A stretch of 64,000 nt of DNA, taken from the NCBI RefSeq assembly GCF_041886205.1, contig NZ_CP169029.1; one strand, given 5' to 3'. A program made the translations under genes and the position numbers. The notes beneath the pieces are model-generated. The model did no database searches. It was not told the origin of the DNA and saw nothing but the letters and a program-made list of their open reading frames with translations. This stretch comes from Escherichia coli. Its GTDB lineage: Bacteria; Pseudomonadota; Gammaproteobacteria; Enterobacterales; Enterobacteriaceae. Position 1 is the stretch's first letter; every line of letters begins with the position of its first letter. Below, one piece after another: positions 4,950 through 16,331 of this stretch.

Positions 4950-5961
4950 CCGTATTCGACAAAGGCACATCAAAATTTCAGCTAACTTATGATGACAGAG
5001 CGCTACAATTTTTTCGTACTTTTGTCCTTGCAACCGAACAATCAACCTATTTCGAGATCCCTGCCGAAGATTCCTGGCTTTTTATCGCTGACGGATCTGA
5101 TAAAGAACTTGATTTCTATACCCTTTCACCAAATATAAACGACCGCTTTGCCTTTCATCCAATTGTCGATCCCTTATCGCGGCGGATAATCGCTTTTGAA
5201 GCCATTGTGCAAAAAAATGAAGATAGCCCATCAGCTATAGCGGTTGGGCAGCGTAAAGACGGGGAAATCTACAAAGCGGATCTCAAAAGTAAGGCGCTTG
5301 CATTCGCGATGGCACACGCACTTGAGCTCGGTGATAAAATGATTTCAATCAATCTATTACCTATGACCCTGGTTAACGAACCTGACGCAGTCTCTTTTTT
5401 ACTTAATGAAATAAAGGCCAATGCTCTGGTGCCTGAACAAATCATCGTTGAATTTACTGAAAGTGAAGTCATATCTCGGTTTGATGAGTTTGCCGAAGCG
5501 ATTAAATCGCTAAAGGCTGCTGGTATCAGTGTAGCAATTGATCATTTTGGCGCAGGTTTTGCTGGTTTGTTACTCCTGTCACGCTTCCAGCCTGACAGAA
5601 TTAAAATCAGTCAGGAATTGATTACCAATGTTCATAAAAGTGGGCCACGGCAGGCAATTATTCAGGCGATCATAAAATGCTGTACATCACTTGAAATTCA
5701 AGTCAGTGCTATGGGCGTGGCAACACCAGAAGAGTGGATGTGGCTTGAATCCGCAGGAATTGAGATGTTTCAGGGGGATCTGTTTGCTAAAGCTAAATTG
5801 AATGGTATCCCTTCCATAGCGTGGCCGGAGAAAAAATAATTTTCAGCACATTCTTTCACATGATTTCAGTAAATCATCGTGAAAATGAATACGTTATGTT
5901 TAAATTTAATCCACATTAAAAATAATGTTTCATCCAAATTAGCTGAAATCTTATTTATACT

Positions 5962-6043: not shown

Positions 6044-6775
6044 GTGGCTTATTACAGCATTGGTGATGTTGCTGAACGTTGCGGGATTAATCCTGTCACT
6101 CTCCGGGCCTGGCAACGCCGCTACGGTTTGTTAAAACCACAGCGCAGTGAAGGCGGACACCGACTCTTTGATGAAGAAGACATACAACGTATCGAAGAGA
6201 TCAAGCGTTGGATAAGTAATGGCGTCCCTGTAGGCAAAGTTAAAGCATTACTGGAAACCACCAGCCAGGATACGGAAGATGACTGGAGCCGCCTGCAAGA
6301 AGAGATGATGTCAATTCTTCGTATGGCTAATCCTGCCAAACTACGCGCAAGAATTATTTCACTGGGTCGAGAGTACCCAGTAGATCAATTGATTAATCAT
6401 GTTTACCTTCCTGTTCGCCAGCGTCTCGTGCTTGATCACAACACCTCCCGCATTATGAGCAGTATGTTTGACGGCGCATTAATTGAATATGCAGCAGCCT
6501 CGCTTTTCGAAATGCGCCGTAAGCCCGGTAAAGAAGCCATTCTGATGGCGTGGAATGTTGAAGAGAGAGCACGATTGTGGCTGGAAGCATGGCGTTTATC
6601 ATTGTCAGGATGGCACATTTCTGTTCTTGCTGATCCCATTGAATCGCCGCGCCCGGAACTGTTCCCGACGCAAACATTGATTGTCTGGACAGGCATGGCA
6701 CCAACAAGAAGGCAAAACGAACTTTTACAACATTGGGGTGAGCAAGGTTATAAAGTCATCTTTCATGCCCCCTAA
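6044..6775 (+). CDS. bluR: MerR-family repressor BluR (YcgE)
   Basis: 243-aa ORF with N-terminal MerR HTH ([27 protein letters not shown]); synteny. Confidence 0.85.
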
Positions 6776-6994
6776 TTTCACCTTTATCCCGCCCCTTAGA
6801 CAGAATGTTATAATCTGAACCCACAACAGCGTTTGTACCGGAGCTGGTCCGTTGCAAAATGCTCACCGGACAATTCAGGTAATCCCCCTTTCACACTTTG
6901 TACATATCACAGCCAAAGGACAGACCAGATTGAAGTGGTAAAACCGATCGTGCACACTACGCAGTCTCACAACTAACAAGAGGTTATTATCCTG

Positions 6995-7399
6995 ATGGAT
7001 CAGGTCGTTGTTTTTCAAAAGATGTTTGAGCAAGTGAGAAAAGAGCAAAACTTCTCCTGGTTTTATTCAGAATTAAAACATCACCGTATTGCACATTACA
7101 TTTATTATCTGGCTACGGATAACATCAGAATTATTACTCACGATGACACGGTTTTGTTATTAAGAGGAACCAGAAACCTGTTAAAAGTTAGTACGACCAA
7201 GAACCCTGCTAAAATAAAAGAGGCCGCATTGCTTCATATTTGCGGAAAATCTACATTTCGGGAATACTGCTCAACACTGGCAGGCGCGGGCGTTTTCCGT
7301 TGGGTTACTGATGTTAATCATAACAAACGCAGTTACTACGCCATTGATAATACGCTTTTATATATTGAAGATGTAGAAAATAATAAACCATTAATCTAG
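6995..7399 (+). CDS. ycgX: YcgX (DUF1398 family) protein
   Basis: 134-aa ORF; synteny. Confidence 0.7.
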   Translation: MDQVVVFQKMFEQVRKEQNFSWFYSELKHHRIAHYIYYLATDNIRIITHDDTVLLLRGTRNLLKVSTTKNPAKIKEAALLHICGKSTFREYCSTLAGAGVFRWVTDVNHNKRSYYAIDNTLLYIEDVENNKPLI

Positions 7400-7605
7400 C
7401 TAAAGTTGGATGCTTAAGAAATGCTTCATAATTCAGTAAGGCATTAGCATAATGGGAATAAAAGTGCAGAGACCATTCCTATGGTTCTAATACTGCCTTT
7501 TTATTGCCGCCCATAGATGTTCAGTACACCAATACTATAAAATTGATATTGAAATGTACTCCCTTGCTTATTGATACATTATTTTATACGGTTAGTTTGC
7601 TTTTA

Positions 7606-7633
7606 AAAACAACGGGCGTGCTATACGCCTGTT
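7606..7633. repeat. Second copy (26/28 identical) of the icd terminator hairpin sequence
   Basis: AAAACAACGGGCGTGCTATACGCCTGTT versus AAAACAACGGGCGTGTTATACGCCCGTT at 8897-8924. Confidence 0.7.
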
Positions 7634-7778
7634 TCATGGCTTAACCCATATTAATTTTGCTTTATTTTTCATCGCGTTATAAGTTTTTAACCAGCAACGA
7701 GTTATCCTTTACTATAAAGTTCAATAGTTGAGACCTTACCCTCATGTCATGCGTATATTCATTATAATGCTCCTTAGA

Positions 7779-7805
7779 CAAAAAAAGCCAACCATGATGG
7801 TTGGC
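7779..7805 (-). terminator. Intrinsic-terminator-like hairpin (GCCAACCAT/ATGGTTGGC) followed by a U7 tract on the minus strand; no annotated minus-strand gene upstream
   Basis: Seen in sequence. Confidence 0.4.
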
Positions 7806-8024
7806 AAAGTGGCACAAAGTAGCATAAAGGCTATGCTTTAATTACAGAAGGTTCAGTCATTTAAATGTATATCGTTTTATCTAAACAGAACTAAAACGAA
7901 GTGAATGATTTCACTTTTCCACTAAATCTCATTTTGTTTAATCTCTGTTGAGATTCCTTGCTTTAAATTTTGTTTTATAAAACAGTAGCTTTATTTTTTA
8001 ATTGATTTTTAGGTAATATAAAAA

Positions 8025-8279
8025 ATGCAAAATCAAGAAATGAATATCCAAATTAAACTATACGCTTATTTAAATAAATATGACACTCGCCTTACAGAAG
8101 AAAAAATTGCGATTGATAAAGCTATTAGAGAATTACATTTTAGCAGCGAGCATGTTGATAACAAAAAAATAATACTGAAGTTACTTTCATTTTTATCATA
8201 TACAGATGATGTTGTTGAAAAAGACATTATCAGAAATACATTGGAAGTGGTTCTTCTTTTTACTTCCGATGATATTTAA
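8025..8279 (+). CDS. AriR/YmgB-family paralogue (84 aa)
   Basis: C-terminal half KIILKLLSFLSYTDDVVEKDIIRNTLEVVLLFTSDDI parallels Ari[39 protein letters not shown] in this same window. Confidence 0.6.
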   Translation: MQNQEMNIQIKLYAYLNKYDTRLTEEKIAIDKAIRELHFSSEHVDNKKIILKLLSFLSYTDDVVEKDIIRNTLEVVLLFTSDDI

Positions 8280-8522
8280 TTGGATTCACTAACTTTATTA
8301 TCAAAATTATTGTCCGAACACTACCTTTCTTACTTATGTTTAATAATAATCACTGCGAATGAGGGGCGCACAACTATATTTTTCTCACACCTGTGATGTA
8401 AAAACACGAGAAAATCCAAATAAAGAACAACATTTGCAATTCCCACCAGATGGATTGCATCACACTTTATTATTCAAAATATTTATCAGCATCATTAAAA
8501 GCCGAAGGATAAGACAAAACAA

Positions 8523-8846
8523 ATGAAGTGGATAGTAATTGACACGGTAATTCAACCTACATGTGGTATATCTTTTTCAGCCATATGGGGTGATATGAAA
8601 ATGATCATCTGGTATCAATCTACTATATTTCTCCCTCCTGGTAGTATATTTAAACCGGTTAAATCTGGTATTATCCTTAAAGATAAAGAATATCCTATTA
8701 CTATTTATAACATCGCACCATTCAACAAGGATTTATGGAGTCTACTCAAAAGCAATCAAGAGTGTCCTCCAGGAGAAAGCAAAATAACAAATAAATGTTT
8801 GCATAATAGTTGCATTATAAAAATATGCCCATATGGGCTCAAGTAA
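8523..8846 (+). CDS. iraM: IraM anti-adaptor protein (RpoS stabiliser)
   Basis: 107-aa [26 protein letters not shown]...; position next to icd. Confidence 0.8.
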
Positions 8847-8896
8847 AGGGTTTAATATAAATATGCTCGATATGCTATTAATAATACCTACATAAA

Positions 8897-8924
8897 TAAA
8901 ACAACGGGCGTGTTATACGCCCGT
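8897..8924 (-). terminator. icd intrinsic terminator (hairpin AACGGGCG...CGCCCGTT followed by a U-rich tract on minus strand)
   Basis: Seen in sequence 25 bp downstream of icd stop. Confidence 0.65.
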
Positions 8925-8948
8925 TGCAATATTAAACACATGTAGTGA

Positions 8949-10199
8949 TTACATGTTCTTGATGATCGCATCACCAAATTCTGAACATTTCAGCAGTTTA
9001 GCGCCTTCCATCAGACGTTCGAAGTCATAGGTTACGGTCTTGGCGTTGATTGCGCCTTCCATACCTTTAACAATCAGGTCTGCGGCTTCAATCCAGCCCA
9101 TGTGGCGCAGCATCATCTCAGCAGAGAGGATGATAGAGCCAGGGTTTACTTTGTCCTGACCGGCATATTTCGGCGCAGTACCGTGGGTGGCTTCAAACAG
9201 GGCGCATTCGTCACCGATGTTTGCGCCAGGGGCGATACCAATACCACCAACCTGCGCTGCCAGGGCGTCAGAAATGTAGTCACCGTTCAGGTTCATACAG
9301 GCGATAACATCATATTCAGCCGGACGCAGCAGGATCTGTTGCAGGAACGCATCAGCGATCACGTCTTTAATGACGATCTCTTTGCCGGTATTCGGGTTTT
9401 TAACTTTCAGCCACGGGCCGCCGTCGATCAGTTCTCCGCCAAACTCTTCACGCGCCAGCTGGTAGCCCCAGTCTTTAAACGCGCCTTCGGTGAACTTCAT
9501 GATGTTGCCTTTGTGCACCAGGGTCACAGAGTCACGATCGTTAGCAATTGCGTATTCGATCGCTGCACGAACCAGACGTTTGGTGCCTTCTTCCGAACAC
9601 GGCTTAATACCGATACCGCAATGTTCCGGGAAGCGAATTTTCTTCACGCCCATCTCTTCACGCAGGAATTTAATCACTTTCTCGGCGTCGGCAGAGTCAG
9701 CTTTCCATTCGATACCCGCATAAATGTCTTCCGAGTTTTCACGGAAGATAACCATATCGGTCAGTTCAGGGTGTTTAACCGGGCTTGGAGTGCCCTGATA
9801 GTAACGTACCGGACGCAGGCAGATGTAGAGATCCAGTTCCTGACGCAGGGCAACGTTGAGAGAACGAATACCGCCACCAACCGGAGTGGTCAGCGGGCCT
9901 TTAATGGCAACGCGATATTCACGAATCAGATCAAGGGTTTCAGCAGGCAGCCAGACATCCTGACCATAAACCTGTGTGGATTTTTCACCGGTGTAAATTT
10001 CCATCCAGGAGATTTTACGCTCGCCTTTATAGGCTTTCTCGACTGCAGCGTCGACCACTTTCAGCATGGCTGGGGTTACATCTACACCGATTCCATCACC
10101 TTCAATGTAAGGGATAATCGGATTTTCAGGAACGTTGAGTTTGCCGTTTTGCAGGGTGATCTTCTTGCCTTGTGCCGGAACAACTACTTTACTTTCCAT
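8949..10199 (-). CDS. icd: Isocitrate dehydrogenase (NADP), native C-terminus with no e14 junction
   Basis: 416-aa [41 protein letters not shown]... Confidence 0.97.
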
Positions 10200-10659
10200 T
10201 CACCTCTCCTTCGAGCGCTACTGGTTTGCTCGTCTGCCACCACGTTGCATATGCGTTTGCGTCCTGCGATACGGATGCTTTAGAGCAATTTTTGTTAATG
10301 ATTTGTAATTGGCTTGTCAATACTACCCTATTGTTTGCCGTCATGAAAGATGCGCGTTATTAGGCTATAATGCGGCAATTCATAATCTGTGAAAATACCA
10401 TGCAAAAAACTTCTTTTAGACCAAAGACAGTATTTTTCAGACCTTCAAATAAGGTATTAAATATCAATAATTTACACCAGATTTTAAGCAATAAAAAAAA
10501 CCACCAGAGATAACTAACAGGGTGCTATTTGGTCAAAATTTGACATTACTCGATTCAGCGACTAACTCACTTTGAGCACTATTGGGAAAATTATCAAAAG
10601 TCATGGTTGAAGCGACAAGCAACGAGTAAATTATGGCATCCACCCTTTTTGAGGTTCAC

Positions 10660-10752
10660 ATGAAACGCTTTGCACTGATAGCTGTGACACTCGTTGCCTT
10701 TACTGGTTCTAGTTCTGCATCTGCTGCAACCGAAGAAATCAACTTCAAGTAA
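10660..10752 (+). other. 30-codon mini-ORF encoding a signal-peptide-like sequence (MKRFALIAVTLVAFTGSSSASAATEEINFK), in frame with the downstream 149-aa ORF but separated by TAA and TGA stops
   Basis: GAGG 5 nt upstream of ATG; frame relationship counted from coordinates (10786-10660 = 126). Confidence 0.4.
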
Positions 10753-10785
10753 CAGAAACACTATATAACAATGAAGTGTTGAAAA

Positions 10786-11235
10786 ATGGATACTACCGAA
10801 GAACGCAATGGAACATATTTCTACAGAGGACACCCGAACCTGTCCAAAATAGAACTACTCAACGTCATATTCCTTGAAGAATTCTGTAAGGAATTGGGGA
10901 TTGATTCGGTATCAGGTGCAGCAATCTTATCTGGTCAACCTTGGCTGGGTACAAGAGCGAAGCCGCAAGGGGCAACCCTGGGAACAAGTGTTGTCTCAAA
11001 GTATGCGCGTATACTGATGAGAGATGCACGCATGCCTTTTGGTATTTCTGTTCATACACCAGTGGGGGTAAGGATGCAGAAATCTAATAAGCTTGCTGCA
11101 ATTATCGCTCGTTGGGTCCCGTGGATTGGTTGGGCTTCACTGTCGATGAGTCTTTACAGGGTTTCGACTCGTACCCAGGAAAAATACAATCTGATTGCCA
11201 AACCTCAAGACCGTATTAAGTGGACTTCCTTCTAA
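10786..11235 (+). CDS. Hypothetical protein (149 aa), hydrophobic C-terminal segment; possible remnant of a secreted protein or toxin
   Basis: Track ORF; no convincing RBS of its own; stop overlaps start of next ORF (TAATG). Confidence 0.45.
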   Translation: MDTTEERNGTYFYRGHPNLSKIELLNVIFLEEFCKELGIDSVSGAAILSGQPWLGTRAKPQGATLGTSVVSKYARILMRDARMPFGISVHTPVGVRMQKSNKLAAIIARWVPWIGWASLSMSLYRVSTRTQEKYNLIAKPQDRIKWTSF

Positions 11236-11570
11236 TGGCGACAACAATCACAGACGAAGTTTTAGCACTGTTCCGTGATGAGATTCCAGGTTATCAGGAT
11301 GACCACGGGAAGGAAATTCCGTTAGAACTGGACTCTGATTTGTTCGACTATCCACGAGATGATATAGAGGACGCTATACGGAAATACAAAGAGAGGTTTG
11401 GGATTAACCTGGATAATCTGGACTGGTCTTTGTACCTTCCGTGGGAGTCTGCACCATTGCTTCAACGATGGTTCAAGCTCAAGCGGGAAGAGGTAGAAAC
11501 AACACGTTTACCGTTAACTGTACGGATGTTTGCAGAATCAGCAGAAGCGGGAAAATGGCTGTATCAGTAG
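11235..11570 (+). CDS. Hypothetical small acidic protein (111 aa from ATG in TAATG overlap; track gives GTG start at 11220)
   Basis: Track ORF; translationally coupled to upstream ORF; hairpin and T-rich tract just downstream. Confidence 0.5.
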   Translation: MATTITDEVLALFRDEIPGYQDDHGKEIPLELDSDLFDYPRDDIEDAIRKYKERFGINLDNLDWSLYLPWESAPLLQRWFKLKREEVETTRLPLTVRMFAESAEAGKWLYQ

Positions 11571-11890
11571 AATAAAAAAGAAGGCTGCGATGCCCTTCTT
11601 ATTACTGCTGATGATGGTAGTGGTAAAGCATCATCCTGAACTTGAACAGTGAAGTGCTGTCACCCATCAGTAATACAGAAACACTATTTTTCATACCAGT
11701 ATTTATTCAATTCATCAATGTAAAATGTGTTCATTGGGCCATATTTATCACCATGCAGCCACACAACCGCTGCTCACTAACCCAGGTATTGATGAAACCG
11801 CGCTGAAGAGCCTGAACCCTGAACCTCTAATGAGTACCTTCAAAGTCCAATGCAATCCGACACTGTGCTACCCTCTGCGTATAGCTCTAT

Positions 11891-12541
11891 TTGGAATTTA
11901 CTATGAAATACTTTAGCGATTCTAAATCTTCTTTTAGAAAAAAACAGGTTAGTCGACTAAACTCGCAACACTCCACTAAGCGTAAACCTGAAAACCAGCC
12001 CACGCGGGTGATCCTGTTCAATAAACCCTACGATGTTCTTCCGCAGTTCACCGATGAAGCCGGACGCAAAACATTAAAAGAATTCATCCCGGTTCAGGGC
12101 GTTTATGCAGCAGGTCGTCTTGACCGCGATAGCGAAGGGTTACTGGTGCTGACCAATAACGGCGCGTTGCAGGCGCGTTTAACCCAGCCGGGTAAACGCA
12201 CCGGAAAAATCTATTATGTGCAGGTGGAAGGTATTCCCACACAAGACGCACTTGAAGCCTTGCGCAATGGCGTAACCTTAAATGATGGCCCTACCCTGCC
12301 CGCAGGCGCGGAGCTGGTTGACGAACCCGCGTGGTTATGGCCGCGGAATCCACCAATTCGTGAACGCAAAAGTATTCCCACCAGCTGGCTAAAGATCACC
12401 TTATATGAAGGACGTAATCGCCAGGTGCGCCGCATGACCGCCCATGTTGGTTTCCCCACGCTGCGACTGATTCGCTATGCGATGGGTGATTACTCTTTGG
12501 ATAATCTTGCCAATGGCGAATGGCGAGAAGCGACAGATTAA
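11891..12541 (+). CDS. rluE: 23S rRNA pseudouridine synthase RluE
   Basis: 216-aa ORF; exact start uncertain (alternative ATG at 11903). Confidence 0.9.
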
Positions 12542-12550
12542 GGATGCAAA

Positions 12551-14172
<1,622 letters not shown>

Positions 14173-16313: not shown

Positions 16314-16331
16314 TGGTTTATTTAATGTTTA
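16314..16331 (+). promoter_or_regulatory. PhoP box direct repeat (TGGTTTA-TTTAA-TGTTTA) in phoPQ promoter
   Basis: Matches (T/G)GTTTA-N5-(T/G)GTTTA consensus; about 60 bp upstream of phoP. Confidence 0.7.

Follow-up and report, generated by a model that had tools for sequence, protein, structure and literature searches.

Two copies of the icd terminator around iraM in Escherichia coli: probable scar of an old lambdoid prophage

How did a short, low-GC segment carrying iraM come to lie between two copies of the terminator of icd, at a gene end used for integration by prophages? In Escherichia coli, IraM blocks RssB and thereby stabilises RpoS, and phage 21, like the e14 element, integrates at the 3' end of icd. 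The DNA analysed here, referred to as the window, is a stretch of 64,000 nucleotides (nt) of contig NZ_CP169029.1 with 100% identity to E. coli strain 6EVA. It contains an intact icd gene (8949-10199, minus strand), with an open reading frame (ORF) of 416 amino acids (aa) and no prophage inserted, and iraM (8523-8846, plus strand), which is convergent to icd across a gap of 102 bp. An initial inspection of the letters alone, hereafter the sequence-only reading, had concluded that icd retains its native end and that e14 is absent, and both conclusions held, as no e14 DNA, genes or proteins and no homologs of IntE, Lit or McrA were found in the whole 64 kb, with icd intact and abutting iraM. The islet bracketed by the two terminator copies (7650-8897) is read here as remnant cargo of an old prophage, most likely a grounded remnant with a target-site duplication and a fairly ordinary case of domestication. 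The locus presents target-derived direct repeats, a single-copy empty site, phage-derived DNA and a deviant base composition; the last of these, proposed earlier as a check, is seen in a GC content of 25-35% over positions 7300-8950 as compared to about 51% in icd.

The two copies of the repeat, designated A (7606-7633) and B (8898-8925), are identical at 26 of 28 positions with a spacing of 1292 bp. This is the identity claimed in the sequence-only reading, although copy B had been placed one base too early, at 8897-8924. The similarity continues without gaps to 44 nt (7606-7649 versus 8898-8941; 35 of 44 positions or 80%) and hence into flanks that are not paired in the hairpin. Allowing up to three mismatches, the window holds two copies in total, and none of 100 dinucleotide shuffles gave a match. 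On the icd strand, copy B (8898-8941, minus strand) folds into an 11-bp stem (8901-8927) followed by the T-run TTTTATTT, with a folding energy of -27.3 kcal/mol and a z score of -5.75, and its core does not vary across E. coli strains. Copy B is a strong, working intrinsic terminator of icd, which also faces the convergent iraM. Copy A (7606-7649), on the attR or host side of the proposed scar, has a stem mismatch on the icd strand, where its fold is no better than that of shuffled sequences, and reaches -16.9 kcal/mol on the plus strand. It varies among strains, again with mismatches in the stem, and is a decaying relic of the terminator with a degraded hairpin. Concerning insertion sequences (IS), IS200C sits directly beside copy A in several strains (e.g. 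at 12819-13277 of locus L097, strain DSM 103246) and IS2 or IS1 is found elsewhere within the islet; hairpin-seeking elements appear to be drawn to the relic hairpin.

Such a match could in principle be a chance similarity or a common dispersed terminator, such as a repetitive extragenic palindromic (REP)-like element, since a G+C-rich stem with a T-run is generic. An Rfam search of the bracket revealed no known RNA family, with a weak, sub-threshold match of copy B to tpke11 (26 bits versus a gathering cutoff of 43) as the other point in favour of this view. It is refuted, with next to no probability left to it, by the shuffling result, by the extension of the similarity to 44 nt and by the genomic distribution of the repeat. 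In a set of 5426 complete E. coli genomes, used for all distribution counts given below, a 47-nt repeat query was found at one to five places per genome, with a median of two, and all inspected copies lie at icd or at the ends of prophages that integrate in icd. A scan with the hairpin pattern AAAACAACGGG-N11-CCCGTT over one genome per species in 100,044 species gave 91 matches. About 70 of these are chance matches in unrelated phyla, as expected for a pattern that specifies 17 bases, while all but two of the enterobacterial matches adjoin icd or an icd fragment. The hairpin lies directly 3' of icd in E. albertii, several Citrobacter species, Enterobacter, Pluralibacter, Tenebrionibacter and related genera, and its inner stem exhibits compensatory changes between lineages (GGGCGTG...CACGCCC versus GGGAGCG...CGCTCCC). 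Its position directly after icd in several genera, together with these compensatory changes, identifies it as a conserved, functional icd terminator, and a conserved enterobacterial icd terminator present in one to five copies per genome is not a REP-like element. Within Escherichia, the scan returned E. albertii and a single E. coli; in E. albertii the hairpin lies directly beside a prophage integrase.

If the bracketed segment was inserted, strains with a single terminator copy and no module should exist, as had been predicted by the sequence-only reading. Using a 244-nt probe over the junction, with at least 80% of it covered, 1037 of the 5426 genomes (about one fifth), including the type strain ATCC 11775, were found to lack iraM and to have one 44-nt copy that joins the ymgL flank to the 3' end of icd. 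Strain ECE170, which lacks iraM, aligns to window positions 6900-7649 and 8898-9100, the overlap corresponding to one 44-nt copy. The empty-site copy has the left flank of copy A on its left side and the icd 3' end on its right side, and the same single-copy structure was observed in three different empty alleles. A hybrid of copies A and B was considered for the single copy and rejected, as it is B-like throughout in all three. In all empty-site genomes that were inspected, icd is occupied by another island (sitABCD and others), and the piece of icd adjoining the hairpin is therefore a pseudogene. The count for iraM itself is 3936 genomes (about 72%); among the remaining ones are O157:H7 strains, in which the whole region from ycgX to iraM is gone and a prophage integrase abuts the hairpin.

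A precedent for the duplication of this hairpin is provided by e14, which duplicates 163 bp of icd (Hill et al. 1989, as summarised in PMC6379469). Comparison with e14, which the sequence-only reading had proposed, revealed that e14 brings a hairpin of its own, so that K-12 has three: copy A, copy B beside an icd' pseudogene of 168 bp at the right end of e14, and the e14-borne copy, which adjoins the functional icd and differs by compensatory changes in its stem. A short arm, ...gataaccgttagcagcctaacaa, precedes the e14-borne copy, and the same arm is found next to the icd hairpin in loci of Citrobacter and Enterobacter that have IntE-type integrases 1-5.5 kb away. In E. coli, copy A and the empty site are natively flanked by a degenerate form of this arm, ataacggttaacatatttata. 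Strain WCHEC035125 has the same layering with a different lambdoid prophage. The layering in these two strains indicates that each integration at icd adds one terminator copy, and of the layers at this integration hotspot the A/B bracket lies innermost and is the oldest. In the prophage-borne copy of WCHEC035125 (locus L120, 33473-33516), the loop and the inner stem are inverted as compared to the native hairpin (GGGCGTATAACACGCCC versus GGGCGTGTTATACGCCC). In the last 160 nt of icd, considered for a phage-derived signature, the differences from the B2 icd' fragment are at ordinary between-lineage levels.

Phage-derived DNA within the bracket is found in a rarer allele of the islet, present in 19 genomes, in which the same repeats lie about 6 kb apart. 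Its order is ycgX, copy A, AriR-like gene, iraM, trkG, an IS903-like remnant, a gene for a 455-aa protein, an e14-type arm, copy B and icd. With 89% identity, the trkG segment corresponds to trkG of rac-like lambdoid phages. It reaches across the intergenic spacer into the Rz spanin gene, of which the last ~74 bp are present, so that a fragment of a phage lysis gene lies inside this allele. The 40-86 nt beside its copy B match the arm of the e14 hairpin and of the Citrobacter elements with IntE-type integrases. Copy A of the large allele is longer, with about 70 nt, of which 13 nt are the end of the icd coding sequence; this additional part of icd is in exact register, and 3 of 500 shuffles were as good. 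It is then interrupted by a remnant of the IS3 family, and the boundary at this point is therefore secondary. For the 455-aa protein no Pfam or NCBIfam family was found, and its PHROG matches are weak and of unknown function. The trkG segment resembles that of the rac prophage in carrying trkG together with the end of Rz; it is not in the window strain and bears on the origin alone.

Together, these observations suggest that the two hairpins are probably an attachment-site scar of the attL/attR type, left by an old lambdoid prophage at the 3' end of icd. The earlier proposal of a remnant of an older insertion at the icd hotspot thus gains support from the empty site, the large allele, the e14 precedent and the prophage relatives of IraM described below, and all of the checks named for it turned out in its favour. 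An integrase of the e14/21 type is most likely to have been behind the insertion, a preference that is due mainly to the e14-type arm of the large allele. Phages of this type bring along a copy of the icd 3' end together with its terminator and a short arm downstream of it. One terminator would therefore have been left beside the functional icd upon integration (copy B), with the original at the far end of the prophage (copy A, by ymgL and ycgX). The duplication would accordingly have been made by the integrase, with the crossover presumably inside icd as for e14. The prophage would then have been reduced through deletions and IS activity, leaving in the window strain a promoter region, the ymgK mini-ORF, the AriR-like gene and iraM, and in most E. 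coli a further deletion of 431 bp would have removed the AriR-like gene so that iraM remained alone. The surviving cargo would have been domesticated, with copy B still terminating icd and facing the convergent iraM. The small and the large allele would share one origin, although related phages, and not a single event, may be their source.

Several results weigh against this reconstruction. Searches by tblastn with the integrases of e14 and of an EDL933 prophage and with XisE found no integrase or excisionase in the window or in the large-allele loci, and in neither the window nor the large allele does the bracket contain a remnant of a structural gene. The repeat of the window and of K-12 ends 8 nt before the icd stop codon, so that an e14-type duplication of 163 bp would have had to be cut back to nearly the exact end of the gene, and beyond copy A no icd homology was detected, local alignments in the window, B and K-12 being no better than those of shuffled sequences. 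The segment with the AriR-like gene and iraM is about 74% identical overall between the small and the large allele, and about 80% in the two coding regions, with a synonymous divergence of about 0.8 as compared to 0.19 for icd, and at such values a single shared insertion is not established. No AriR-like gene was found by tblastn in 50,697 phage records, a PHROG search gave a marginal match, and the conserved region upstream of it has no counterpart in any phage record. Outgroups gave no polarity, as neither bluR nor the bluRF cluster lies beside icd in Citrobacter and Pseudocitrobacter, and E. albertii alone was recovered among the other Escherichia species in the scan.

Some of these points would be accommodated by a different integrative element that used the icd terminator itself, comprising the hairpin and about 13 nt from the end of icd, as its attachment (att) site, so that the repeat of 44-70 nt is the block of identity between attP and attB. 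In both alleles the end of the repeat is indeed close to the icd stop codon, with 44 nt in the window and K-12 and about 70 nt in the large allele, and integrase targets typically show identity blocks of this size at the 3' end of a gene, as in the case of DLP12 with 47 bp of argU (PMC6379469). This explanation is nevertheless unlikely: an e14-type arm is kept beside copy B of the large allele, copy A of that allele is cut by the IS3 remnant and so has a secondary boundary, the boundaries differ between the alleles, and no intact element with such ends was found. An origin with no site-specific integration at all, either through an illegitimate or homologous insertion that duplicated the terminator or through loss of an ancestral islet between the hairpins, is quite improbable. 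It agrees with the lack of an integrase, and precise loss between 44-nt repeats is possible; in addition, all inspected genomes without iraM have another island in icd, which points to a complex history. However, it leaves the phage DNA and the e14-type arm inside the large-allele bracket unexplained, and e14 makes the same duplication in K-12. Loss between the repeats also meets the difficulty that a single copy that is B-like over 44 nt would place the crossover within the first ~10 nt of the present-day copies. An old lambdoid prophage integrated at icd hence remains the preferred origin of the two hairpins.

The product of iraM in the window scores 172.2 bits against the NCBIfam model NF007393 (cutoff 121) and matches phrog_4407 with E = 1e-50, the gene is 97% identical to K-12 iraM at the DNA level, and the ratio of nonsynonymous to synonymous substitution rates (dN/dS) between its alleles is 0.18. 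Elsewhere, IraM is cargo of lambdoid prophages: relatives with 57-69% identity are encoded in Stx2-converting phages and in lambdoid prophages of E. albertii and E. coli, always on the opposite strand, with the Q antiterminator or stx genes on one side and nanS-p/holin on the other. Homology of these prophage copies to the window begins about 43 nt upstream of iraM, with none further upstream. Strain CFT073, which lacks iraM, has a member of the same family, IraL, on its potB island (PMC4045071). IraL and the prophage copies thus share with the islet both the protein family and the arrangement as an oppositely oriented accessory gene in a lambdoid late region or a prophage-like island, whereas the prophage copies differ in residing in recognisable prophages elsewhere in the chromosome and in having no AriR-like neighbour. 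In Tenebrionibacter intestinalis, of a distant genus of enterobacteria, an ORF (locus L049, 3078-3407) with 31% identity to full-length IraM is located about 7 kb from icd. K-12 iraM has been placed "on the e14 prophage" (PMC4045071). This placement needs correction, since the coordinates of K-12 iraM lie past e14 attR and the native terminator and since iraM is also present in e14-free strains.

Upstream of iraM, the window carries a gene of the AriR/YmgB family with 84 aa (8025-8279, plus strand), which matches the Pfam family PF10798 (YmgB/AriR; E = 1.8e-15) over model positions 2-59 of 59 and has no NCBIfam match. Its product is 40% identical to K-12 AriR. Like AriR (YmgB) of the ycgZ-ymgA-ariR operon, about 3 kb away, it belongs to PF10798 and is of similar length; it differs as a distant paralog inside the islet, upstream of iraM. 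Homologs were found in E. coli alone and at this locus alone, in an 84-aa form with 92-99% identity to the window protein and in an 86-aa form with 73-75% identity, which is that of the large allele. The dN/dS against the 86-aa allele is 0.17, and judged by this ratio the gene appears to be under purifying selection, the sole sign of a function. A role in defence was considered and discarded, as PADLOC gave no matches for the AriR-like protein, IraM or the 455-aa protein. The 431-bp segment that covers most of the AriR-like gene (8063-8493) is deleted in most E. coli and retained in 10 genomes, and the gene in either allelic form is present in about 29. In B and K-12 strains, the ATG and about 12 codons of the AriR-like ORF are joined just upstream of the ribosome-binding site of iraM. 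The retention of this start indicates that the AriR-like gene is ancestral to the islet and that the common allele is a deletion derivative.

Between copy A and the AriR-like gene lies a non-coding stretch of about 330 nt (7700-8025), which is kept in all alleles, even in the one with about 74% identity. A terminator-like hairpin with a T-run, identified by a consensus scan on the minus strand (7787-7805), overlaps an ORF of 14 codons (MVGKVAQSSIKAML; 7797-7841, plus strand) that aligns with the annotated ymgK of B and K-12 strains, and a second small hairpin, AGCATAAAGGCTATGCT, is conserved as well. The K-12 YmgK has been detected as a protein (PMC6001520). The stretch could be a regulatory leader or a source of a small antisense transcript. 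The sequence-only reading had described the bracket as holding exactly iraM and the 84-aa AriR-like ORF; both genes were confirmed, but the ymgK-like ORF, the conserved stretch and its hairpin have to be added to them.

The same stretch contains a match to the PhoP-box consensus KGTTKA-N5-KGTTKA (TGTTTAATCTCTGTTGA; 7935-7951, plus strand), 74 nt upstream of the AriR-like ORF. The consensus has two matches in the 64 kb, where 0.17 would be expected, and the other one (16315-16331) lies 61 nt upstream of phoP. K-12 and B have a weaker second half-site, TGTTTAACATCCATTGA, at the islet position. The iraM promoter was reportedly mapped by Bougdour in 2008, and iraM is activated by PhoP (PMC11825808). 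Judging from the motif, PhoP would bind at 7935-7951, and the AriR-like gene and iraM would be co-transcribed from a PhoP-dependent promoter in the window strain. It is a tentative possibility that the ancestral unit was a PhoP-controlled cassette of these two genes delivered by an e14-type prophage.

The genes to the left of copy A are bluF (ending at 5839), bluR (6044-6775) and ycgX (6995-7399), all on the plus strand. ycgX encodes a DUF1398 protein that matches phrog_413 (E = 1.5e-41) and lies just outside the bracket; it is a type of gene typical of lambdoid prophages and may be a still older prophage relic. Its synonymous divergence between the window and the large allele (locus L104, 6766-7170) is 0.53, as compared to 0.19 for icd. 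ymgL, with 36 aa in K-12, is reduced to 12 codons in the window (7452-7490) by an in-frame stop. On the other side of icd, a second islet (10370-12538) is associated with rluE, whose first 17 codons are duplicated at 10370-10420 with 94% protein identity to the full gene at 11894-12538. Between the two copies lie a gene of the STM2901 family (10786-11235) and a DUF1493 gene, and the ends of this islet carry a 20-nt DNA repeat (10406-10425 and 11924-11943). It is not found in B and K-12 strains and accompanies the large trkG allele too.

In relation to known elements, the islet resembles e14 in its target gene, in the duplication of the icd terminator hairpin upon integration, in the e14-type arm kept beside copy B of the large allele, and in that both are decayed lambdoid elements from which useful cargo is kept. 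It differs in having no e14 gene and no integrase left, in its position in K-12 outside e14 attR and beyond the icd' pseudogene, and in a duplication that comprises the terminator alone (44 nt), whereas that of e14 comprises 163 bp of icd and the terminator. With grounded remnants such as DLP12 it shares a short direct repeat of the target 3' end that flanks a reduced prophage with host-serving genes. It is far smaller than these, with 1.25 kb, two genes and no gene of phage function, and its origin is revealed solely by comparison with the rarer 6-kb allele. In the literature, no paper was found that describes a terminator duplication around iraM.

IraM is a well-studied link between PhoPQ and RpoS stability, and its origin has so far been described loosely. 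The islet is located outside e14, is an older layer at the same hotspot and occurs in strains without e14, and a handful of strains keep an AriR-like partner gene that laboratory strains have lost. The locus is thus a tidy illustration of repeated prophage integration and decay at a single site, rather than a new kind of system. Should the two-gene cassette described above be true, the control region of K-12 iraM would be the promoter of the AriR-like gene, moved next to iraM by the 431-bp deletion, and the original bicistron would still be in use in strains like 6EVA. This bicistron would couple Mg2+ starvation to the stabilisation of RpoS and to a second connector protein of the YmgB type, and the E. 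coli-specific link from PhoP to RpoS would originate in a domesticated cassette of phage accessory genes.

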